NCBI GenBank assembly: GCA_038245905.1
Contig: JBBRRY010000055.1
Location: 1-10,567, forward strand
Source: Thermoanaerobaculia bacterium
Lineage (GTDB): Bacteria; Acidobacteriota; Thermoanaerobaculia; UBA5066
Length of the DNA: 10,567 nucleotides
Reading direction: 5' to 3'
The notes under the pieces were generated by a model that did no database searches, was not told where the DNA came from, and saw nothing but the letters and a program-made list of their open reading frames with translations. Position 1 is the stretch's first letter; every line of letters begins with the position of its first letter. The position numbers and the translations under genes are program-made. This document shows positions 49 to 10,567 of the stretch, in pieces.

Positions 49-2100
49 TCAGTCGACGATCTCGACCGTCGCCCGGGCCTGGGCGAGGTCCGTGATGGGT
101 GCCGAAAGGCCTTTGCCCGGGAAGAGGAAATCGACGAGGTACTGGTCCAGCTTGCGGTAGTGGAGCGTCGCGAGGACGTCGAGCTTTCCGCGCGGCGGCG
201 CCGGCACGGTCACGTCCCGCACGGGCCGGGGGCTTCCCGCCGCGCCGGGGCAGCCGAATGAGTACTCGGCCGCGTCGGAGTAACCCGGGAAGAGGCTCCG
301 TCGGTACCGGACGCCGACCATCTCCCAGAGATTGTGCCGGTCGATCAGGTTCCCGAACCGGTCCACGGGTTCGGCCTTGAAGAGGAAAGTCCCAGGCGGG
401 ATCATCTTCTTCTCGTCGGGCTTTCCCGACGAGAAGACGACGCCGCCGGCCTCGTCCTTCACTTCGATCTCGACCCACGACTGGATCAGGTCCAGCGGTC
501 CGGTCGGATAGTCGTGCCCCACTTTGTTCGACGTGATCACGACGCGCAGCTTCAGGGGCTCGCCGCGGCGGGCCTTCGCCGGGGCGTCGAGGTCGATCTG
601 CACGGCGGCGCCTGCGGCCCACTTGCCGGCGATCTCCGGGATCTCGACCTCTCCCTTGAGCCACTTCTTCACGAGATCGACCTGCTGCTCGCCGCCCTCG
701 AGCTTCAGGAGCGTCGGCATGTACTGGTTCGCGCCGAGGAAGCGGTGGCTGCGGTGCTTGCCGTCCGTGGCCGTCCGGTTGTAGTCGGCCGTGTCGCCGG
801 AGGCCGGCTCCGGGCCGTCGAGGAGCGGCATGTGGCACTCGCGGCACTCGACCGTCTTTCTCGCGTCCTTCGGGTGGTTCCACTTGCTCTTGCGCCAGTT
901 GTCGTACTGGTTCTGGAGCTGGACCCAGCCGAAGTTGTTGACGTCCTTGTCGACGAACTGCTTGTGGCAGGCGGCGCAGTACTCCGGGGTCTTGTACATG
1001 CGCTTCGAGAGGGAGTCCACGTGGTGGACCGGGTAGCTCCGGATCAGAAAGTACGACGCGAGCTTCAAGGCCCGGCTCTTCGAGGTCTCGAACAGATATC
1101 GCTTCGGCGGCTTCACGACGAAGTTCGCGTTGCCCTGCACGTCGGTCTTCGTGACGGCGTGACAGGAGAGACAGGAGACCCCCTCCTGGAATCCGAGGTC
1201 CTCCGTCAGATTCTCCTTGAAGACGACCTTCGCGCCCGAGAAGAGCGAGATCGGGTCGTGGCATCCACCGCAGTAACGGGTGGACTCGGGGCCGTTCTGC
1301 CTGCCCATCTCCTCCTGGACCCTCTGAAAGGCCGGGTCCAGCGCCGCCCAGCGGTGCGCCGAGACCGACCACTCGGCATAGATCGCCGGGTGACAGCCCG
1401 CCTCACCGCAGGACGCCGAGCCCGCGAGAGCTTCGGGGGCGAGCGGCCCGTTCGACTCGGTGCGTGCGAGGCTCGGGGCGAACGGGCGGTCCTGCCCGTA
1501 AGGCATCCGGTAGTCCTTCGGGAAGCGCCCCACCGTCTTCGGACCGTCGTAGAGGAGGCTCGCGGGGAAGGCGAGGAGGAGCGCGACGGCCGGCGCCCCG
1601 AGGAGCGCCGCGACGTACCCGCGGCGCGCAGCCGAGAAGGCCTCGCGCGCCGTCCCCTCGGCCGCGCTCCGCTTTCGAAGCGGCCAGAGATGCGCAAAGA
1701 GGAGGACCGCGAGAGCCACCGATGGAACGAGGTGGAGCGTCCGTGCGAAGGGCGGCACCCGGTCCGAGAAGAAGCCGAGATACGTCACCCAGAGCCCGGT
1801 TCCCTCCGCGAGCACGATCGCGCCGAGCCCGCAATAGCCGAGGACCTTCGAGGGCGTCAGCGCGTCGGCGCGGTATTCCTCGAAATGCCGCCAGAGATAG
1901 AGCCCGACCGGGACGAGCGACAGGAAGCCCGCCAGCGTGTGCAGGAGGACGGTCCACTCGAGGACCGGCGAGAACCCGATCAGCCGGAGCGGCAGGCCGC
2001 TCACGATGAGGTACACGAGCAGACCGGCGGCGATGCGGGAGAGAAGTCCGGACCAGCCGCCGGTCCGGGTCGCCCGGGATCGGATCGCGGAACCGCTCAT
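49..2100 (-). CDS. Membrane-bound multiheme cytochrome c: N-terminal 5-TM His-containing (cytochrome b/DUF4405-like) domain, pentaheme c554-like domain, C-terminal beta-rich domain
   Basis: 683-aa ORF. Heme motifs CGGCH, CLSCH, CAACH, CRECH plus atypical CGEAGCH (CX4CH). The pattern W..SAH..A..DP.F followed by GHDYPTG resembles c554-like multiheme proteins. Five hydrophobic segments in the first ~185 aa carry two His pairs. ATG lies 12 bp after the upstream gene's stop. Confidence 0.88.
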   Translation of the reverse strand: MSGSAIRSRATRTGGWSGLLSRIAAGLLVYLIVSGLPLRLIGFSPVLEWTVLLHTLAGFLSLVPVGLYLWRHFEEYRADALTPSKVLGYCGLGAIVLAEGTGLWVTYLGFFSDRVPPFARTLHLVPSVALAVLLFAHLWPLRKRSAAEGTAREAFSAARRGYVAALLGAPAVALLLAFPASLLYDGPKTVGRFPKDYRMPYGQDRPFAPSLARTESNGPLAPEALAGSASCGEAGCHPAIYAEWSVSAHRWAALDPAFQRVQEEMGRQNGPESTRYCGGCHDPISLFSGAKVVFKENLTEDLGFQEGVSCLSCHAVTKTDVQGNANFVVKPPKRYLFETSKSRALKLASYFLIRSYPVHHVDSLSKRMYKTPEYCAACHKQFVDKDVNNFGWVQLQNQYDNWRKSKWNHPKDARKTVECRECHMPLLDGPEPASGDTADYNRTATDGKHRSHRFLGANQYMPTLLKLEGGEQQVDLVKKWLKGEVEIPEIAGKWAAGAAVQIDLDAPAKARRGEPLKLRVVITSNKVGHDYPTGPLDLIQSWVEIEVKDEAGGVVFSSGKPDEKKMIPPGTFLFKAEPVDRFGNLIDRHNLWEMVGVRYRRSLFPGYSDAAEYSFGCPGAAGSPRPVRDVTVPAPPRGKLDVLATLHYRKLDQYLVDFLFPGKGLSAPITDLAQARATVEIVD

Positions 2101-2112
2101 GTGAAGCTGGCG

Positions 2113-2823
2113 TCAGGCCAGCCGCTGGATCAATCCGACGAGCGCATCGGCTTCGGCCCTGCCGAGCACGCGGTCCGCGAGGGGGTAGAGAATCTGCTCT
2201 TCCTTGAGGTTGTGACCGCCGAGGATGGATGCGAGCCGCGCGCGAATCTCCGACGCACCGGCACCGCCCCCGTCGAGAGCGGTCGCAATTTCCGCGAGGC
2301 AGGAACGGATCTCGACGTGCTCGGCCCGCATGACGGCCGTGGGGCCCGCCGTCGGGCCGAATCCGGCACGCGCCTCGAGGGCCGGGAAGAGGATCTCCTC
2401 CTCGAAGCGAATGTGCCGCTCGAGCCCACGCGCGAAGGCGGCGAAGGTCGCGCGGGCGTCCGCGACGTCGCCCGCCTCGAGACCGGCGAAGGCGGCCCCT
2501 TCGAGAGCATCCAGCCGGTCGTGATCCCAGGCGAGCGCCTCGAGAACGCCGCGCCCCGAGCCCCGGGCGGCGTCGCGCCGCATGACCTCGATCCCGTCCG
2601 GTCCGGCAGCGCCGCCTCCCGGCGTCCATTCGAACTGGCCCTTGCGCTCGCGCTGCAGGGTCTCGAGGAGGTCGTGGGCCGGCCGCTCTGCCTTCAATAC
2701 GAGCGTCTCACCGGGAACGAGAGTGTCGAAGCGCTCCAGCAGGGAACGGCCGCGGTCGAGCGGGGCCAGTCCTGCAAAGTCGCAGATTGCGGCTGTCGAT
2801 GTCGATGTCGATGTCCCGGCCAT
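2113..2823 (-). CDS. DUF2249-like + hemerythrin (HHE cation-binding) domain protein
   Basis: Start reassigned to ATG 2823, which has an AGGAGG RBS at 2834-2829 (236 aa). Hemerythrin ligands: DHDRLD, HIRFEEEILFP, MRAEH, HNLKEEQILYP. N-terminal FDTLVPGETLVL...GQFEW resembles DUF2249. Confidence 0.88.
   Translation of the reverse strand: MAGTSTSTSTAAICDFAGLAPLDRGRSLLERFDTLVPGETLVLKAERPAHDLLETLQRERKGQFEWTPGGGAAGPDGIEVMRRDAARGSGRGVLEALAWDHDRLDALEGAAFAGLEAGDVADARATFAAFARGLERHIRFEEEILFPALEARAGFGPTAGPTAVMRAEHVEIRSCLAEIATALDGGGAGASEIRARLASILGGHNLKEEQILYPLADRVLGRAEADALVGLIQRLA
2794..2815. repeat. Short tandem hexamer repeat (TGTCGA) x~3.7 encoding a Thr-Ser N-terminal linker
   Basis: tgtcgatgtcgatgtcgatgtc, in frame, encodes TSTSTST. 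Confidence 0.7.
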
Positions 2824-2872
2824 CGCGTCCTCCTGTGTCTCGCCATGATTCCCGCGGCGTCGCCCGGCCGAC

Positions 2873-2886
2873 ATGACGGCCGTCAT
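2873..2886. promoter_or_regulatory. Crp/Fnr-family-like binding site (ATGAC-GGCC-GTCAT) upstream of the hemerythrin and multiheme genes
   Basis: Perfect 14-bp intergenic palindrome with a TGA-N6-TCA core. Its centre is at -41.5 if the -10 is AATCAT (2850-2845, - strand) and the TSS is ~2838. Matches a second site at 6407-6420. Confidence 0.65.
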
Positions 2887-2965
2887 ACCGAATGCGTGTT
2901 TCGAGCCCGAGCCAATCGAACATAGCCAGCGCGGCCGCCCGGAGGGCCGCCTTCTCCTCGTAACT

Positions 2966-3706
2966 TCAGATTGCCGGAAGAGACGCGGGGGTGCGGAGCT
3001 TCGCCAGGGTCGGGAAAAGGACGTTGTTCTCGAGGTGGACGTGCTCGTGCACGTCGCGTTCCAGCTCGGCGAGCCCGTGCATCAGCCCTCGGAAGGTGTT
3101 GCAGGCGTCCTGCGGAGCCGTGTATCCCGCGGTCACGCGCCGCAGCTCGCGAAGGAGGTCCCCCACCTTCTCGTGCTGCCGCGAGAGAAGGGCAATGCCA
3201 GCCTCGACCGACGCCGGGGGCGCCGTCCGGCCGGCCGACCGTCCGGACGCCTGCCGCATCTCGAGCGCAACGAGCGCGGGGAAGACCACGTCCTCCTCCT
3301 CGGTCAGGTGCGGCTCGAGGTCAGCGCGCAGAGCGCCGAACAACCGGTGCATCTCGGGGACCGACTCGGGGTGTCGCTCGCCATGCGCGGCGAGGACCTG
3401 GTCGGCCATGCCGCCGAGACGAGGCAGCTCCCGCCAGAGCGAGCTGTGGTACCGGGTGAGGATGTGGGAAATCAGCTCGCTGATAGCCGCCTTCGCCACG
3501 ACCGGCTCGGGTGACCTCGGAGCCGCGGCCGCTTCCGACAGCTCCGCAAGGAAACCTTCGAGGCCGAGCCCATGCGCCGTCGAGACCTCGGAAAGCGTCT
3601 TGTCGCCTCCGCAGCAGAAATCGACGCCGTGGGCCTGGAAGACGCGGATGGTGGCGGGGTGCTCGGCGGCGATCGAGCCGACCGTGGACGCGGATGTCAG
3701 GTTCAT
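2966..3706 (-). CDS. ric: Iron-sulfur cluster repair di-iron protein (Ric/YtfE/ScdA/DnrN family)
   Basis: Start at ATG 3706 with a GGAGGT RBS (246 aa). N-terminal GVDFCCGG signature. Di-iron motifs RYH, HLTEEEDVVFP, QH, HVHLENNVLFP, plus DACNTFR. Confidence 0.93.
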   Translation of the reverse strand: MNLTSASTVGSIAAEHPATIRVFQAHGVDFCCGGDKTLSEVSTAHGLGLEGFLAELSEAAAAPRSPEPVVAKAAISELISHILTRYHSSLWRELPRLGGMADQVLAAHGERHPESVPEMHRLFGALRADLEPHLTEEEDVVFPALVALEMRQASGRSAGRTAPPASVEAGIALLSRQHEKVGDLLRELRRVTAGYTAPQDACNTFRGLMHGLAELERDVHEHVHLENNVLFPTLAKLRTPASLPAI

Positions 3707-3753
3707 CGAGACCTCCGTCGGCGAGACTACCCCACCGGCCTTCTGCGGCGTTC

Positions 3754-4215
3754 TTACCGGGCGAGGTCCGGCCGATAGCTGCCGGGCAACGACCGGAATG
3801 CGATCGCCAGACGGTTCCAGCCGTTGATCACGACGACCGCCAGGGTGAGGTCCACGAGCTCTTTCTCGGCGAAGTGCCGCCGGACCTCGTCGTACAGCTC
3901 GTCGGACACGTGGGTCTCGCCGACCCGGGTCACCGCCTCGGTCCACGCCAGCGCCGCCCTCTCGCGTTCGCTGAAAAACGGCGTCTCCTGCCAGGCCGCG
4001 ACGGCATAGAGGCGCTGCTCCGTCTCTCCCGCGGCCCGCGCGTCCTTCGTATGCATGTCGAGGCAATAGGCGCACCCGTTGATCTGGCTCGCACGGACCT
4101 TCACGAGCTCGAGCAGCTCGTGCTCGAGCCCCGAGGCGCGAACGTATTTCTCGAGCCCGAGCATGGCCGCGAGGCCTTCGGGCGTTACGTTGCCATATTC
4201 GACCCTGGGTTTCAT
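3754..4215 (-). CDS. Carboxymuconolactone decarboxylase / AhpD-family protein (alkylhydroperoxidase-like)
   Basis: Start at ATG 4215 with an AAAGGA RBS (153 aa). Core ELVKVRASQINGCAYCLDMH, plus FSERERAALAWTEAVT and INGWNRLAI. Confidence 0.92.
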   Translation of the reverse strand: MKPRVEYGNVTPEGLAAMLGLEKYVRASGLEHELLELVKVRASQINGCAYCLDMHTKDARAAGETEQRLYAVAAWQETPFFSERERAALAWTEAVTRVGETHVSDELYDEVRRHFAEKELVDLTLAVVVINGWNRLAIAFRSLPGSYRPDLAR

Positions 4216-4251
4216 GTCCGGTTCCTTTCGCGGCTCTTTCGCTCCCGGCGT

Positions 4252-4290
4252 TTGACTCCTCTGATTGCCACTCATAACATCATGATAACA
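4252..4290. promoter_or_regulatory. Divergent sigma70-type promoter region between the ahpD-like and nnrS-like genes
   Basis: + strand: TTGACT (4252-4257), 17 bp, TAACAT (4275-4280). - strand: extended -10 TGtTATCAT (4290-4282). AT-rich patch in very GC-rich DNA. Confidence 0.5.
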
Positions 4291-5676
4291 GTGGAAACTA
4301 TCTCTTCGCCGATCTCGTCGGCCGCACCCGTGGCCGAGGGGCCGATCTACCCGCGCTTCTTCCTCACCGGCCTCTGCATCACGCTGACCGCCGGAGCGGG
4401 CTGGGGCGCCTGGCTCCTCCTCAACATCGCCCGTGCTCGCAACTTCTCGGCGCCGTCGATCTTCGAGATCAACGCCCACGGTCAGGCGCAGATCTATGGC
4501 TGGATGGGGCTCTTCATCATGGGGTTCTCACTCCAGATGTTCCCCGCTTTCTGGGGGGTCCGCCTGGCCGCGCCGCGCCTCGCCCGCGCTCTACTGCCGC
4601 TGATGACCCTCGCGGTCGTCGTGAGGACGATCGGCGAGGCGCGCCACGCCGGCCTCTTCGGCGACCTCGCAATCGCGGCGGGGGTGCTGCAGCTGGCCGT
4701 CGTCGCGACCTTCGTCGCGCTGCTGGCGGCTACGGCGCGCCGAAAGGGGGCGCGGGGGCGCGTCGCGGATCTCTACATCGGGGCAGGGCTGGCCTGGTTC
4801 CTCGTCTCCACCGTCTTCGACCTGCGCCATCTCGTCCTCATGATCGGCGCGCCCGACCGCGCGTCGCTCCTGGCCGAGATCGCGATCTGGCAGCTGCCTC
4901 TGCGCGACCTGCAGATCCATGGCCTGGCGCTGTCGATGATCCTCGGCGTCTCTCTGCGCGTGCTGCCCGGGCTCTTCGGCACGCCGGTCGCCGACGAGCG
5001 CCGCACCTTCCGCCTCTTCTGGCCGCTGCAGGCCACGATCCTCGCCGAGTCGGCGCTGTTCCCCGTGGCGATGACCTCCCGGCGGCCGGCCTTGTTCGCC
5101 GTCGTCTGGGCGGCATGGGCCGGATTCGCCGTCTGCGCCGTCCTCGCCGCCGCCAGCTTGCGGGTCTTCGCGCGGCCCCGCTTCGCTCTGCCACGCCTCT
5201 CGCCGCTCGCCTTCGTGCGCGCGGCGCACGTGTGGCTCGGCGTGTCGCTCGCGATGCTGGTGGCCGGGCCGCTCTGGTCGCACCTGCTCGGTCTGCCGTT
5301 CTCGCATGCCTGGCATGGCGCCACCCGGCACGCGATCACGGTCGGCTTCATCAGCCTGATGATCGTCGGCGTCGCCTCGCGGGTCGCGCCAAGGCCGGTG
5401 GGGAGCCCGGCGGCCCTTGCGGCGGTGCCGCTCGCGCCGTTCGTCCTGCTGAACCTCGGCTGCACCCTGCGCGTGACGCAGCAGATCCTGACCGACCTGA
5501 CCCCCGCCGCCTTCCCGTTGGCCGGCGCCTCGGGGCTACTCGAGGTCGCCGGCCTCGTGTGGTGGGCGAGCTGGATCGGTCCGCGCCTGTTGAGCTTGCT
5601 CCACCCTCGCATGGCGGTGCGGCCCCCGGACTCGTCCCGTGCCGACGACATCGCCTCGGGCGCGGAAGTCGGATGA
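4282..5676 (+). CDS. nnrS: NnrS-like polytopic membrane protein (NO response)
   Basis: About 12 hydrophobic segments. Repeated His-containing motifs AHGQAQIYGWMGLFIMG, QIHGLALSMILG and RHAITVGFISLMIVGVASR. Start is ATG 4282 or GTG 4291; the longer ORF from 3511 overlaps real - strand genes. Confidence 0.75.
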   Translation: MITVETISSPISSAAPVAEGPIYPRFFLTGLCITLTAGAGWGAWLLLNIARARNFSAPSIFEINAHGQAQIYGWMGLFIMGFSLQMFPAFWGVRLAAPRLARALLPLMTLAVVVRTIGEARHAGLFGDLAIAAGVLQLAVVATFVALLAATARRKGARGRVADLYIGAGLAWFLVSTVFDLRHLVLMIGAPDRASLLAEIAIWQLPLRDLQIHGLALSMILGVSLRVLPGLFGTPVADERRTFRLFWPLQATILAESALFPVAMTSRRPALFAVVWAAWAGFAVCAVLAAASLRVFARPRFALPRLSPLAFVRAAHVWLGVSLAMLVAGPLWSHLLGLPFSHAWHGATRHAITVGFISLMIVGVASRVAPRPVGSPAALAAVPLAPFVLLNLGCTLRVTQQILTDLTPAAFPLAGASGLLEVAGLVWWASWIGPRLLSLLHPRMAVRPPDSSRADDIASGAEVG

Positions 5677-5693: not shown

Positions 5694-6410
5694 ATGCAAA
5701 CCACGTCGTCGTTCTTCGGACCGGGGATCGGCGAGAGCCAGAGAAGTCTCCTCGATCTGATCAAGCGTTTCGGCGAGTGCACCCTCACCCAGCTCGAGGC
5801 CGGATTCGAGCTGAACCGCGAGACTCTCCGCACCCACCTGAAGTCGCTCGCCGCGATGGGGCTCGTCGAACGATCGGGCGTCCGCCGTTCCGGACCCGGA
5901 CGGCCCCACGTCCTGTACCGGCTGACGGCCGCCGGGGAAGCTCTCTTTCCGCGCCGCGAGGGAGCGCTGCTGCGAGAGCTCGCCGAATTCCTGCTCGAAC
6001 AGGGCCACCGGGACCTCCTCGAGACGTTCTTCGACCTTCGGCTCGCGCGCTGGCGCCGGGAGGTGGCGCCCCGCCTTGCCGGCCTGCGTGGCCGCAGGCG
6101 ACACGAGGCAATCGCCGAGATCCTCTCCGAGGAAGGTTTCGTCGCCGAGGTCGTCGCCGGCGCTGCCGCGTCCCGGCTGCGGCTCTGCCACTGCCCCGTC
6201 CTGGATCTCGTCGCGATCTCCGAGCTGCCGTGCCGGTTCGAGAAGAGGCTGATCGAGGGTCTGCTGGGCGAACGGCTGCGCCGTGAGACTTTCATTCCGG
6301 ACGGAGACCACGCCTGCACGTATTCGATCTCGACCGCCTCTCCCGCGCGGTCAAAACAAAAGGACGCTCCGCGAAGGGGCCGAATCGCTCAAGGCCGCGC
6401 GTCTATATGA
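5694..6410 (+). CDS. SufR-like / ArsR-type winged-HTH transcriptional regulator with C-terminal Cys motif (COG2345-like)
   Basis: GGAGGT RBS before ATG 5694 (alternative ATG 5673 overlaps the nnrS stop). HTH and wing LRTHLKSLAAMGLVER...GPGRPHVLYRLTAAG..LFPR. C-terminal CHCP-...C(x2)E...C. Confidence 0.88.
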   Translation: MQTTSSFFGPGIGESQRSLLDLIKRFGECTLTQLEAGFELNRETLRTHLKSLAAMGLVERSGVRRSGPGRPHVLYRLTAAGEALFPRREGALLRELAEFLLEQGHRDLLETFFDLRLARWRREVAPRLAGLRGRRRHEAIAEILSEEGFVAEVVAGAAASRLRLCHCPVLDLVAISELPCRFEKRLIEGLLGERLRRETFIPDGDHACTYSISTASPARSKQKDAPRRGRIAQGRASI

Positions 6411-6448
6411 TGCCGATCATGCGGTTTTCGCCAGCGAAGCCTTATTTT
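6407..6448 (+). promoter_or_regulatory. Crp/Fnr-family-like site (ATGAT-GCCG-ATCAT) with -10 TATTTT; putative class II promoter for the two-component genes
   Basis: Palindrome at 6407-6420, an 8/10 match to FNR TTGAT-N4-ATCAA. TATTTT at 6443-6448 puts the box centre at -41.5 (TSS ~6455). Confidence 0.68.
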
Positions 6449-6468
6449 TTGGCGGAGACCAGTTGGAC

Positions 6469-7889
6469 GTGAGTACCGCTGCCGGTCCGGTCCCTTCGCC
6501 CGTCGCACGGGCTCACGAGCCGGTCCGGGCTTCGCCCGAGGCTGCCCCCTCGGCGCCCGACATTCTCGCGCTCGCAGGACTCGCGGGAGCCGCAGTTTTC
6601 ATCCTCTTTCTTCTCTGGGCTGGAGTCGAGCAGTCGATCAGGCTCTCCGACGCCGCCCGAGACCGCTTCCACTACGCCCGGGGCGTTTCGACGAGCCTCC
6701 TGACGGGACTCCTCGTCGGAGCGATCGCCTGGCGTCAGCAGCGCCGACACAAAGAAGAGCTGCGGTCGCTCGCAGCCAGGAGCGACCGAGCCGCGCACGA
6801 GGCTCGTGCCCTCTTGCAGCTCGTCGTCGACAACACCCCGGCAGCGCTCGTCGTCCTCGACTGTGATTTCCGCATCGTCCAGGCCAATCGGGCCGCCGAG
6901 CGCGTCCACGGCCGTGATCTCGAAGGCCACCGCTGCTCCGACGCAATCGCGGCGTGCACGCAGATGTGCGGGGAGTGTCCGGCCGCTCACAGCTTCGCGC
7001 ACGGGATCTCGTCTCCCGAGGCGCGTTCGCTCACCGACCCACGCACCGGCGAGATGCTTTCGGTAGAGAGCCACCCGCTCGAGCTGCCGGATGGCCGGCG
7101 TTACGTTCTCCTCGTCGAGAGAATCGTCACCGAGCAGAAAAAGCTCCAGGCCCGCCTCATCCACCAGGAAAAGATGGCCGCCTTCGGGCTCCTCGCCGCC
7201 GGAATCGCGCACGACATGGGGAACCCCCTCGCCTCCATCGAGATGCAACTCCAGCTCGTCGACGAGAGCCTCCTCCCCGGCGAAACGGCCGGCGTCATGC
7301 AGACGGTGAGGCAGGAGGCCGCGCGCCTGAGGCGGATCCTGCGCGAGCTGGTCGACTTCGCCAGGCGCCGAAGGGACGAGGCGAGCCTCGTCTCCGTCCA
7401 GTCGGTCGCGGAGGATGCTCTTCGCCTCATCCGGCACGACCCGAGGATGGGGAGAGTCGAGGCCTCGACGGTCTTCGATCCGGAGGCGCCGCCTGTCTCG
7501 ATCGTGGAGGACCACCTCATGCAGGTCGTCCTCAATCTCCTGATCAACGCGCTCGACGCGATGCCTGAGGGTGGCACCCTCCGGATCGAAGTGCAGGCCG
7601 CGGGACGCTCGGTGGCGTTGCGGGTCCACGACTCCGGGCACGGGATGGAGCGGCAGGTTCTGGCGCGCTGCCTCGAGCCCCTCTACACGACGAAGGCGCC
7701 GGGCAAGGGGACCGGTCTCGGCCTCAGCATCTCGCGCGACATCCTTCTCGAGGTCGGGGGCGGTATCGAGCTGCACAGCGTCCCCGGCCACGGGACCACG
7801 GCCGTCGTCACGCTGCCCTCGGCAGCCGTGGCCATCGACCCGGCCCGCGTCCCCGAGAGCGCGCTCGCGAACGCACCCGTCGGGGTCCA

Positions 7890-7893
<4 letters not shown>
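6469..7893 (+). CDS. Membrane-bound PAS-domain sensor histidine kinase (NtrB-like)
   Basis: Two TM helices, a PAS domain (VVDNTPAALVVLD...ANRAAE), H-box AHDMGNPL, N-box QVVLNLLINALDAM, G1 HDSGHGM, G2 GTGLGLSI. Start is uncertain (TTG 6463 or GTG 6469). Confidence 0.92.
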
Positions 7894-9283
<1,390 letters not shown>

Positions 9284-9296
<13 letters not shown>

Positions 9297-9331
9297 GAGG
9301 CTCCCGCCCCCGTTCCTCTCAGAACTGAGAG
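9284..9331. promoter_or_regulatory. Tandem palindromic enhancer (UAS) sites CTCTCA-N4-TGAGAG x2
   Basis: CTCTCAacacTGAGAG (9284-9299) and CTCTCAgaacTGAGAG (9316-9331), 32 bp apart and ~100-150 bp upstream of the predicted sigma54 TSS. Confidence 0.8.
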
Positions 9332-9406: not shown

Positions 9407-9422
9407 TGGAATGTTGCTTGCT
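9407..9422 (+). promoter_or_regulatory. Sigma54 (RpoN) -24/-12 promoter for the cytochrome c-narG genes
   Basis: TGGAATgttgcTTGCT: GG (9408-9409), N10, GC (9420-9421), matching TGGCAC-N5-TTGC. Lies next to the enhancer-binding protein gene and the UAS palindromes. Confidence 0.8.
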
Positions 9423-9441: not shown

Positions 9442-10377
9442 ATGCGAATTTCCTCCCGTGCTCTCAGGTCTTCCCCCGTCCTCCTCGTGGCGATCGCCGC
9501 CGGAGCGCTCGCACAGGCTCCCGGCTCGCCGCCCGCTTCCGCGGCATCCGCGCCGCCAGCCACGGCCGGCGTGGCGCCCGCGGCCGCCGCCGCGGTCCAG
9601 AGCCCGGCCGAGGACCTCTTCTCGCGCAAGTGCGGCTCCTGCCACACCATCGGCAAGGGGGTCCGCGTCGGCCCGGACCTGAAGGACGCGGACAAGCGCC
9701 GCAGCCACGCATGGCTGGAGGCCTTCGTCGTGGCGCCGAGCACGATGCTCGACACCGATCCGGACGCAAGAAACCTGCTCGCGGACTTCAAGGGCGTGAG
9801 GATGCCGGACCTCGGCCTTTCGGCGAAGGACGTGAAGTCGCTCGTCGAGCTCATCGCACGCTGCTCATCCGCGCCGTGCAACCTCGCGGGAAAATTCACG
9901 CCGGCGACTGTCGCGACCGACCGCGACATCGCGCGCGGCCGCGACCTCTTCCTCGGGCTCCAGCCGCTCAAGGCCGGCGCCGCACCGTGCCTCTCGTGTC
10001 ACACCGTCCGCGGCGTGAAAAGCGCCGTACCGGGCGGGACCCTGGCGAAGGACCTGACGAACGTCTTCGCGCGGCTGGGCGACGAAGGGCTCGACACCGC
10101 CCTCGCGAACCCTCCTTTCCCGCTCATGAACAAGCTTTTTGCCGAGCGCCCCCTCGATCCCGCCGAGGTCTTCGCCCTGCGCGCGTTCCTCTATCAGGCG
10201 AACCGCGGCGGCGAGCCGGCGCGGGAAAACCCGCTGAGCGTCTTCCTCATGGGCTCCCTCGGGGCGGTCGGGGTCCTGATCACCCTCAACGCCGCCTGGG
10301 GACGGAGGCTGAGGGGCGTTCGGCGGCCTCTCGTGAAGAAGCAAAACGGCGAAACGCCGGGGAGACACGCGACGTGA
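9442..10377 (+). CDS. narC: NarC-like membrane-anchored diheme cytochrome c associated with nitrate reductase
   Basis: Signal-peptide-like N-terminus, Ala/Pro linker, heme motifs CGSCH (followed by VGPDL and RMP) and CLSCH (followed by LAKDL and PLM), C-terminal TM helix with a basic tail. Stop overlaps the narG start. ATG 9442 is preferred because ATG 9406 overlaps the sigma54 promoter. Confidence 0.82.
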
Positions 10378-10567
10378 AGTGGATCAAGGACCTCGTCAGC
10401 CCGAAGACGCGCTCGTGGGAAGAGTTCTACCGGAACCGCTGGCAGCACGACAAGGTCGTCCGCTCGACGCACGGCGTGAACTGCACCGGCGGGTGCTCCT
10501 GGAACATCTACGTCAAGGAAGGGATCGTCACCTGGGAGATGCAGGCGGTCGACTACCCCCTCATCGA
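10374..10567 (+). CDS. narG: Respiratory nitrate reductase alpha subunit, 5' fragment (runs off the window)
   Basis: GTG 10374 with a GGGGAG RBS translates to [62 protein letters not shown], the NarG FS0 [4Fe-4S] motif (H-x3-C-x3-C). No Tat signal. Not in the supplied ORF track. Confidence 0.93.

Follow-up and report, generated by a model that had tools for sequence, protein, structure and literature searches.

NreB of Staphylococcus carnosus, the soluble kinase with which the NreBC system senses oxygen, controls genes of respiratory nitrate reduction through a LuxR-type partner, NreC. As quoted in PMC13478379, its cytoplasmic PAS domain carries a CX2CX11CX2C motif, which is reported to hold an O2-labile [4Fe-4S] cluster. 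The NreB of Bacillus licheniformis, whose PAS domain has been solved (9WEX), is reported to be a sulfide sensor in which three cysteines and a non-protein fourth ligand hold a [2Fe-2S] cluster. OrpR from D. vulgaris Hildenborough is described as a sigma-54 activator whose PAS domain has three conserved cysteines, an acidic residue at C+2 and a redox-sensitive cluster that passes from [4Fe-4S] to [3Fe-4S] (PMC8359166). Our literature searches for the motif reported below, or for iron-sulfur PAS domains in general, returned NreB, OrpR and HydS, the last of which has its cluster elsewhere than in the PAS domain; matches to CX10CX2C were motifs of reductive dehalogenases or zinc proteins and were discarded. 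The main text of a PAS census paper lists only nine domains with an NreB-like cysteine motif, and the papers searched did not describe a membrane PAS kinase that acts on narGHJI by way of sigma-54. The 10,567-nt stretch of DNA analyzed here (the window), from a Thermoanaerobaculia bacterium, encodes a cysteine-cluster kinase and an activator predicted to switch on the adjoining nitrate-respiration genes, a wiring that is probably new to the literature we searched.

The sensor histidine kinase gene (6469..7893, + strand) was delimited from its open reading frame and translation, its candidate start codons, the lengths of its orthologues and Pfam matches to PAS_4, HisKA and HATPase_c. Beyond the 3' end of the upstream gene this frame offers only two start codons, TTG at 6463 and GTG at 6469; the latter gives a kinase of 474 aa, and orthologues have 472-475 aa. 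Residue numbers are counted from 6283, where the open frame starts, and not from the GTG. The protein is predicted to cross the membrane twice and to carry, on the cytoplasmic side, a PAS domain followed by a HisKA/HATPase core. TM1 (residues 94-115; 6562..6627, +) is a strong prediction, with 19-residue hydropathy up to 2.57, and TM2 (residues 135-150; 6685..6732, +) a weak one at about 1.0, a conserved helix rich in Ser, Thr and Gly with a basic stretch, RQQRRH, directly after it. In NarX and NarQ a P-box, the periplasmic four-helix nitrate-binding domain, occupies about 100 residues between the transmembrane helices. Pfam finds neither a P-box nor any other periplasmic sensor domain in the kinase, and its two helices are joined by 19 residues (6628..6684, +), as the initial annotation had recognized when it described a short loop and no NarX-type domain. 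This loop is among the best-conserved parts of the protein, its conserved positions being E116, H130, Y131, R133 and G134 (E116 and H130 in 65 of 71 orthologues each, R133 and G134 in 67 each), so that an extracytoplasmic input remains compatible with the missing periplasmic domain.

Pfam, AlphaFold and structure searches agree on a cytoplasmic PAS domain with flanking helices at residues 165-300 (6775..7182, +). PAS_4 matches residues 182-286 (E 1.3e-7), and the AlphaFold model of residues 165-300 adopts a canonical PAS fold at a mean pLDDT of 86.8, the cysteine-bearing block being among its less confident parts (mean pLDDT 75). The top VIA-align match of this model is the NtrB PAS domain 3b33 (Z 12.6, rmsd 2.3, 104 residues). 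Foldseek and VIA-align, run against a library to April 2026, returned generic PAS domains only (LOV, FixL, NifL, NtrB, CitA) and did not list 9WEX, and the ESM Atlas and its cluster names gave generic PAS labels only. The HisKA dimerization and phospho-acceptor domain follows at residues 304-363 (7192..7371, +; PF00512), with a phospho-acceptor, H310 (7210-7212), that is invariant among orthologues, and the HATPase_c catalytic domain at residues 409-513 (7507..7821, +; PF02518, E 3.8e-25).

Translation of 6283-7893(+) reads GHRCSDAIAACTQMCGECP at ORF residues 215-233, within the PAS domain. The cysteine motif C218-x6-C225-x3-C229-x2-C232-P233, CSDAIAACTQMCGECP, occupies 6934..6981 (+), with codons at 6934-6936 (C218), 6955-6957 (C225), 6967-6969 (C229) and 6976-6978 (C232) and with P233 ending at 6981. 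A C-x6-C-x3-C-x2-C-P motif in a cytoplasmic PAS domain was what the initial annotation had reported, and translation, coordinates and the Pfam and AlphaFold assignments all agree with it. By a rough estimate, four cysteines within 15 residues could turn up by chance in a few proteins per proteome, so that conservation is the real test. Across 71 orthologues this test upheld three of the four cysteines, C218 (70), C229 (70) and C232 (71), but not C225, which is present in 22. The conserved unit is therefore C-x10-C-x2-C, mostly followed by Pro, rather than the four-cysteine motif first proposed. At the C225 codon (6955..6957, +), 41 of the 71 orthologues have Arg, and the cysteine traces to one change on the tree, making it a clade-specific, single-origin replacement of Arg.

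Other lineages carry extra cysteines at nearby positions other than that of C225. On the tree, such residues were gained or lost at least eight times at differing positions, and they are about nine-fold enriched near the core (70 of 2062 residues in 219-250 versus 92 of 25390 elsewhere); ten of the 71 orthologues have the three core cysteines alone in the segment. At position 220, the C+2 of C218, 62 of the 71 have an acidic residue, Asp or Glu. When 26 PAS domains reaching down to 30% identity are compared, the only invariant columns are the three core cysteines and one Asn of the PAS core.

The three-cysteine signature extends far beyond the orthologues. Among the best 149 remote matches, 104 contain such a PAS domain, and the signature is found in 191 of their 425 PAS domains, with the exact spacing of 10 and 2 in 173 of the 191 and with no further cysteine in the segment in 134. 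We define this group here as an unnamed subfamily of PAS_4-type domains with the fixed-spacing signature G-x-x-C-[YHF]-x5-R-x3-C-x2-C-P. Our kinase has the Gly, the three cysteines at 10 and 2 and the Pro, and departs from the signature twice, with Ser after the first cysteine and Cys in place of Arg. The GAFTGA motif was found in none of the 149 best remote matches.

PDB sequence searches with the family profile and with P0085, a subfamily protein that has several PAS domains, found no solved C-x10-C-x2-C PAS structure, the latter query matching kinase cores only. A single-sequence search with the PAS domain of our kinase gave no NreB-type match at E <= 1; its weak match to NifL and its chance matches to hydrogenase large subunits were rejected. 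The profile built from the 26 PAS domains does match 9WEX over its full length (E 5.3e-4, 23.2 bits), at a level for which general PAS similarity could suffice. Among the twelve solved chains matched by this profile, 9WEX is the sole one with cluster ligands in the cysteine segment; in the alignment the cysteine columns do not coincide, the ligands lying in the same segment but 2-5 residues off.

Translation of the kinase is predicted to be coupled to that of an NtrC-type sigma-54 activator (7890..9296, +), which starts at a TTG overlapping the stop codon of the kinase gene. Pfam assigns this response regulator REC, AAA+ (Sigma54_activat) and HTH_8 domains, and its translation contains GAFTGA, in keeping with the sigma-54 partner that the initial annotation had named. 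Two 16-bp palindromes of the form CTCTCA-N4-TGAGAG, putative upstream activator sites, follow: CTCTCAACACTGAGAG at 9284..9299, which overlaps the regulator gene at its 3' end, and CTCTCAGAACTGAGAG at 9316..9331, 32 bp from the first. They lie 76-123 bp ahead of a predicted sigma-54 promoter and are the sole perfect copies, and the sole pair, in their own 3.8-Mb genome, where the predicted regulon appears to be the single operon that follows them. The promoter is a -24/-12 box, TGGAATGTTGCTTGC, at 9407..9421 (+). A sigma-54 consensus scan of the window allowing three mismatches gave 27 matches against 23.9 expected, which by itself is not above chance, and the box at 9407 is credible only because of its position and conservation. 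Each of the 16 intervals between regulator and cytochrome c genes (7142 nt in total) has one coding-strand TGG-N9-TGC, 15 of these 16 with TTGC, and the other strand has one in all; the background is 0.45 per kb. The genome also encodes rpoN.

The first gene of the target operon encodes a c-type cytochrome (9442..10377, +; Pfam Cytochrom_C), which precedes narG in 19 loci. The 5' end of narG (10374..10567, +; Nitr_red_alph_N) begins with a GTG that overlaps the cytochrome stop codon, and the gene continues on contig C72 (TIGR01580 match, 1483.8 bits). That the kinase stands beside nar had already been noted; the activator sites conserved ahead of cytc-narG, together with the sigma-54 box there, now support a link of regulation as well as of adjacency, and the comparison shows the palindrome pair and the sigma-54 promoter as the predicted drivers of cytochrome c-narGHJI.

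The same arrangement of kinase, activator, palindromes, sigma-54 box and nar recurs in Acidobacteriota and Planctomycetota, the relatives compared all being metagenome-assembled genomes. At 19 of 29 orthologous loci cytc-narG either follows the kinase-regulator pair or is divergent from it; of the ten others, five are contigs in which the sequence stops within 400 nt of the end of the regulator gene. Pairs of palindromes with a spacing of 30-34 bp occur in the window and at 20 of 31 loci examined. At locus L013 the pair adjoins a nar operon 6.5 kb from the kinase, and at L028 narGHJI comes after the cytochrome. A molybdopterin/4Fe-4S oxidoreductase lies nearby at L026, and the orthologues at L025 and L031 do not adjoin nar. 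At L025, from a planctomycete, the cassette of kinase, activator, palindrome pair and sigma-54 box stands before an operon with genes for ADH, enoyl-CoA hydratases, HGD-D and BcrAD/BadFG, which is, as judged from these genes, a benzoyl-CoA-reductase-like, oxygen-sensitive pathway. Directly upstream of the kinase in the window are nnrS, a ytfE-type repair gene, hemerythrins and a gene for a SufR-like regulator; these NO-stress genes are kept only in the closest relatives and are without activator sites.

We put at about even the chance that respiratory nitrate reductase is switched by a two-component system with this kinase as its sensor, under redox control through an iron-sulfur cofactor in the PAS domain. 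As judged from the sequence, from the profile match to 9WEX and from the parallel with OrpR, the cofactor itself is plausible, and the C-x2-C-P ending of the motif resembles cluster motifs of ferredoxins. The cluster would be held by C218, C229 and C232, which are predicted to sit on the D-alpha, E-alpha and F-alpha helices, the cofactor region of other PAS domains; in the lineage of the window C225, one helical turn before C229, would replace the conserved Arg and supply a fourth ligand. Under anoxic, reducing conditions an intact cluster would let the kinase phosphorylate the activator, and nar would be transcribed. Oxygen or other oxidants would convert or destroy the cluster, and this would shift the short, highly conserved helix that runs from the PAS domain to the phospho-acceptor His, turning the kinase off. 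The direction of this switch is assigned by analogy with S. carnosus NreB only. That the L025 cassette precedes a benzoyl-CoA-reductase-like operon points to anoxia or redox, and not nitrate or NO, as the signal. Nitrate respirers use class I benzoyl-CoA reductase, so a nitrogen-oxide signal could still fit this context.

A cluster might instead be present and respond to a small ligand or nitrosylating species bound there, such as NO, nitrite or sulfide, rather than to oxygen or redox. Three-cysteine clusters leave one iron or coordination position open, B. licheniformis NreB is reported to hold a labile sulfur ligand at that position and to sense sulfide, and the NO-stress genes directly upstream in the window would suit such a role. 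We nevertheless consider a ligand signal distinctly unlikely: the window lineage fills the fourth position with C225, the L025 cassette also precedes an anaerobic operon unrelated to nitrogen, and the confinement of the NO-stress genes to the closest relatives, with no activator sites, appears to leave NO in particular without specific support.

More doubtful still is a structural or regulatory zinc site, with the PAS domain sensing something else or only transmitting. Clustered cysteines that include a C-x2-C pair are typical of zinc sites, the window protein has four cysteines, and a further residue, His209, is invariant among the orthologues. Structural zinc sites normally have four protein ligands, however, whereas only three positions are conserved here; most domains of the wider subfamily have Phe or Tyr at position 209, and 134 of the 191 have just the three cysteines. 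Of the solved chains that the profile matched, the only one whose ligands lie in this segment is an iron-sulfur protein.

The conserved loop between the transmembrane helices raises the possibility, again less probable, that the true input enters through this loop, which would read a membrane partner, the quinone pool or, at a dimer interface, nitrate or nitrite, with the PAS cysteines as accessories. Of the 66-68 orthologues with a residue at the position concerned, 65-67 keep E116, H130, Y131, R133 and G134, a conservation exceeding that of the transmembrane helices, and NarX and NarQ bind nitrate through Arg at their dimer interface. Against a loop input, 19 residues are very few for a binding site, the three cysteines are conserved at least as strongly, and two orthologues (L025, L031) are found away from nar. 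Least probable is a metal-free domain in which the C-x2-C pair and the third cysteine form a thiol/disulfide switch, as thiol-based PAS or kinase switches such as ArcB would allow, or in which Cys-Pro, the core of haem-regulatory motifs, binds haem: a disulfide needs two cysteines, yet three are invariant, mostly at the same spacing, across very distant PAS domains, and the wider subfamily has neither CXXCH nor a conserved axial His.

The redox-controlled iron-sulfur switch thus remains our preferred reading, and it can be extended. C-x10-C-x2-C-P PAS domains may form a very large, unrecognized class of iron-sulfur sensors, in which a three-cysteine cluster reads ligands or redox state through an open site; in the nar-controlling kinase family, different lineages may have capped that site repeatedly with a fourth cysteine, each at its own position, retuning the sensor, and our kinase may also read nitrate, nitrite or the quinone pool through the His/Arg loop. 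We regard this extension as tentative and unlikely; if true, one protein would combine the roles of E. coli FNR and NarX. The domains so grouped often occur as several repeats per protein. Should the three-cysteine PAS domain bind an iron-sulfur cluster, such sensing, so far two isolated cases (NreB and OrpR), would become a feature of a subfamily, and the three- and four-cysteine forms would offer a natural series for studying how a fourth ligand tunes a sensor. The locus provides a complete, testable circuit of sensor, activator, two predicted binding sites, sigma-54 promoter and target operon, and bears on how uncultured Acidobacteriota and Planctomycetota decide on nitrate respiration, bacteria that abound in soils and sediments in which the turnover of nitrate is important.

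Among described systems, S. carnosus NreB shares with our kinase a histidine kinase core, clustered cysteines in a cytoplasmic PAS domain and nitrate-reduction genes as the target. The differences that the initial annotation had drawn, in topology, cysteine spacing and partner, all hold: NreB is soluble whereas our kinase has two transmembrane segments; C-x10-C-x2-C with a variable fourth cysteine takes the place of C-x2-C-x11-C-x2-C; and a HisKA (PF00512) core works with a sigma-54-dependent NtrC-type partner (REC, Sigma54_activat, HTH_8) instead of LuxR-type NreC. With B. licheniformis NreB the kinase has in common three conserved PAS cysteines in the same segment, spanning 15 residues in 9WEX and 14 here, but the order is inverted, C-x2-C-x11-C against C-x10-C-x2-C, and the columns are offset. 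That NreB is reported to be soluble and to control sqr-pdo for sulfide oxidation, and a long loop replaces the PAS helical region in 9WEX; ours is a membrane kinase beside nar with helices predicted there.

OrpR, as described, shares the three conserved PAS cysteines, the Asp or Glu at C+2 and the sigma-54 output, and differs in being a one-component protein with PAS fused to AAA+, where we find a membrane kinase and a separate activator, and in its C-x8-C-x3-C spacing as opposed to 10 and 2. No OrpR-like protein was found in the one Desulfobacterota genome examined. The output half of the circuit is that of NtrB/NtrC, AtoS/AtoC and ZraS/ZraR: HisKA kinase, REC-AAA+(GAFTGA)-HTH_8 regulator, tandem palindromes and a -24/-12 promoter, every feature of NtrC-class sigma-54 two-component systems being present, rpoN included. 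None of these three pairs has a three-cysteine PAS domain or controls narGHJI, and assignment to the AtoSC, NtrBC or ZraSR equivalogs was rejected, the scores being far under the NCBIfam cut-offs (AtoS 204.7 versus 646; AtoC 395.8 versus 714). With NarX/NarL and FNR the locus shares its narGHJI target and, presumably, Nar expression when oxygen is absent. Its activator, however, is sigma-54-dependent and not a LuxR-type or CRP-type sigma-70 activator as NarL and FNR are, and oxygen sensing would sit in the kinase, where FNR places it in a DNA-binding iron-sulfur protein.

The kinase gene (6469–7893, + strand) likely starts at GTG 6469, giving a protein of 474 aa beside orthologues of 472–475 aa. 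The initial annotation had placed a cysteine motif in its cytoplasmic PAS domain, and the motif is there: GHRCSDAIAACTQMCGECP, running from C218 at 6934 to the end of P233 at 6981 (residues are counted from 6283, where the open frame begins). Pfam PAS_4 covers residues 182–286, and an AlphaFold model (input 71 sequences; mean pLDDT 86.8) has the full PAS topology, with C218 in the short D-alpha, C225 and C229 in E-alpha, and C232 at the E-alpha/F-alpha junction; this cysteine block (mean pLDDT 75) is among its lower-confidence parts. Structure searches with the model returned PAS domains only, headed in VIA-align by the NtrB PAS domain 3b33 (Z 12.6, rmsd 2.3, 104 aligned residues).

To define which cysteines are conserved, residues 90–300 were used as query to collect 70 relatives of the same architecture, all of which were aligned with the window protein (n=71). 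The proposed four-cysteine motif did not hold as a unit: C218 (70/71), C229 (70/71) and C232 (71/71) are nearly universal, the sole row lacking C218 having a Cys in the next column, whereas C225 is present in only 22/71 and position 225 is Arg in 41/71. When the motif columns were left out of the tree, C225 required a single change, on a branch with support 82 (SH-aLRT), and none of 500 label shuffles gave so low a count. Because of this distribution, alignment and tree together identify C-x10-C-x2-C, in most cases with a Pro after it (54/71), as the conserved unit, and the window's four-Cys form as a derived state of a single clade. Other lineages carry extra cysteines at 224, 226, 227, 235, 244–246, 249 or 263, ten of the 71 proteins have none across 205–268, and the state of three versus more than three Cys changes at least eight times on the tree. 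Extra cysteines make up 3.4% of residues 219–250 (70/2062) versus 0.36% elsewhere (92/25,390, leaving out one conserved ATPase-domain Cys), as raw counts that ignore kinship. When 26 PAS domains from the genome loci were aligned, with identities as low as 30%, no column was invariant except those of the three Cys and of one PAS-core Asn.

Used by itself as query in an exhaustive search, the PAS domain retrieved 2342 cluster representatives at E ≤ 0.001, of which the 149 best, the close orthologue left out, were scanned with the PAS-domain profile. In these 149 best hits, 191 of 425 PAS domains have Cys at all three columns, 173 of the 191 with the exact 10-and-2 spacing and 134 without a further Cys in the segment, and the subfamily signature reads G-x-x-C-[YHF]-x5-R-x3-C-x2-C-P. 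At least one motif occurs in 104 of the 149 proteins, many with tandem copies, and none of the 149 contains a GAFTGA motif; the window's own genome has a single copy of the three-Cys PAS domain. A 156-aa open frame 5' of the kinase in a related locus (L003, 7714–8181) is a second, degraded PAS copy with the first Cys changed to Tyr, possibly a duplication remnant. Literature searches found no description of this PAS subfamily, the accessible text of a PAS census mentions only nine NreB-like Cys-motif domains (PMC10468136), and PDB sequence searches with the profile of the 26 domains and with a multi-PAS member (P0085) found no solved structure of the subfamily, which is apparently large and uncharacterised.

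We lean, on indirect grounds and by a modest margin of confidence, towards an Fe-S cluster at this candidate site, since the three cysteines are invariant, their spacing is fixed, they lie in a region of the fold where other PAS domains carry cofactors, and neighbouring cysteines have been gained repeatedly and independently. A C-x2-C-P ending and three-Cys ligation recall clusters of the ferredoxin, aconitase and radical-SAM type, as well as NsrR, IscR and RirA. Along the entire domain, the profile of the 26 domains matched 9WEX, the PAS structure of Bacillus licheniformis NreB, at E 5.3e-4, a weak score that general PAS similarity could give; among the twelve chains listed at E ≤ 0.1, no other has its cluster ligands in this segment. 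In the alignment, NreB C63 and C66 fall 2 and 5 residues from C218 and C78 falls 3 from C232, the cysteines spanning 15 residues in 9WEX versus 14 in the window kinase. The NreB domain is described as holding a [2Fe-2S] cluster on C63, C66 and C78 with a labile sulfur ligand (PMC13478379), and OrpR of D. vulgaris as holding a redox-sensitive [4Fe-4S] cluster in its PAS domain, with conserved C52, C61 and C65 and Asp/Glu at 54 (PMC8359166); in the aligned kinases, position 220, two residues past C218, carries Asp or Glu in 62/71. Points against a cluster are the weak 9WEX score, a cysteine order inverted relative to NreB, a spacing that differs from that of OrpR, and the lower model confidence around the cysteines. 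A zinc site on the same invariant cysteines appears unlikely, and a metal-free thiol switch or a haem site slightly more so.

N-terminal to the PAS domain, a strong hydrophobic segment (94–115), a 19-residue loop, a weaker hydrophobic segment (135–150) and a basic stretch follow one another, in agreement with the earlier description of two membrane-spanning segments joined by a short loop. The loop (6628–6684, + strand) is more conserved than either helix. It is no simple linker and may provide an extracytoplasmic or membrane input to the kinase, because almost every orthologue retains E116, H130, Y131, R133 and G134 (55–67 of the 66–68 with a residue there).

The proposed coupling of the kinase to sigma-54 is supported by its surroundings. 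The stop of the kinase gene overlaps by four bases, at 7890–7893, the TTG start of an NtrC-type activator gene (7890–9296, + strand; REC, Sigma54_activat with GAFTGA, HTH_8), and further on the GTG start of narG lies on the stop of a c-type cytochrome gene (9442–10377, + strand), again over four bases (10374–10377); these overlaps suggest translational coupling within each pair. Only the 5' end of narG is in the window (from 10374, + strand), the rest being on another contig of the same genome (C72), and rpoN was found in this genome. Across 79 related loci an NtrC-type activator adjoins every kinase relative but one, where the contig ends beside the kinase. Of the 29 loci taken as orthologous (PAS profile score ≥ 130), 19 have cytochrome c and narG with the kinase-activator pair (three divergent, one 6.5 kb away), five end less than 400 nt past the activator gene, and five (L012, L022, L025, L026, L031) lack nar although the contig leaves space for it; in L028 the operon order is cytochrome c-narG-narH-narJ-narI.

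A sigma-54 box, TGGAATGTTGCTTGC, lies at 9407–9421 (+ strand), 20 nt 5' of the likely cytochrome start. TGG-N9-TGC occurs once on the coding strand in 16/16 activator-cytochrome intervals, as TTGC in 15, with one match on the opposite strand and a background of 0.45 per kb. Upstream of the box are two 16-bp palindromes, CTCTCA-N4-TGAGAG, at 9284 and 9316, the genome's only perfect matches (71 sites have at most two mismatches) and its only pair; such a pair, spaced 30–34 bp, was found in the window and in 20/31 loci examined. The L013 pair (18944–19222) has travelled with the nar operon and lies just 5' of the cytochrome gene, the operon being 6.5 kb from the two-component genes. In L008 a pair with 31-bp spacing (9752–9798) lies 5' of the kinase gene on a contig that ends soon past the activator, and could reflect autoregulation or a divergent target. 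Because of this comparative evidence (overlaps, activator pairing, nar neighbourhood, boxes and palindrome pairs), kinase, activator, tandem sites, sigma-54 promoter and cytc-narGHJI very probably form one circuit, which is complete and testable. Literature searches on sigma-54 and narGHJI found no description of such control.

The window is a complete contig (C55, 10,567 bases) of a 3.8-Mb metagenome-assembled genome (68% G+C), and its part upstream of the kinase, 49–5676, is a nitrosative-stress-type set: genes for a 683-aa multihaem cytochrome (49–2100), a DUF2249-hemerythrin protein (2113–2886), a ScdA_N-hemerythrin (YtfE/RIC-type) protein (2966–3700) and a CMD/AhpD-like protein (3754–4479), all on the minus strand, and nnrS (4282–5676, + strand; PF05940, 33.5 bits). 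Only the closest relatives keep this set beside the kinase (L002, and in part L003, L004, L013 and L028), and it contains no CTCTCA-N4-TGAGAG pair or activator sites. Between nnrS and the kinase, an ArsR/MarR-type HTH regulator (5694–6410, + strand) with four Cys in its C-terminal half aligns over its full length to the Fe-S regulator SufR (TIGR02702; E 5e-12, 45.9 bits, below the cut-off of 178.8); it may be an NO/redox regulator of the upstream genes.

In the planctomycetotal locus L025 (stretch 9437–17334, from the palindromes on), the kinase-activator pair, a palindrome pair (9437 and 9469) and a near-identical box, TGGAATGACTCTTGC, precede a different operon instead of nar, with ADH, two enoyl-CoA hydratases, two HGD-D and two BcrAD/BadFG ATPases; judged by gene content, its make-up is that of a class I benzoyl-CoA reductase-like pathway. 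In L031, BcrAD and HGD-D genes also lie nearby, as does a molybdopterin/4Fe-4S oxidoreductase gene in L026. Because the sensor appears to be reused for different anaerobic, oxygen-sensitive modules, anoxia or redox would fit better as its signal than nitrate or NO.

By class, the window system is an NtrC-type two-component system, though a member of none of the named equivalogs. It resembles NreB-NreC, in which an Fe-S PAS kinase controls nar, and OrpR, in which a three-Cys Fe-S PAS domain feeds sigma-54, the cluster being only a candidate in the window kinase. It matches neither in topology, Cys pattern, kinase class or partner type, as the initial annotation had said of NreB for topology, cysteines and partner.
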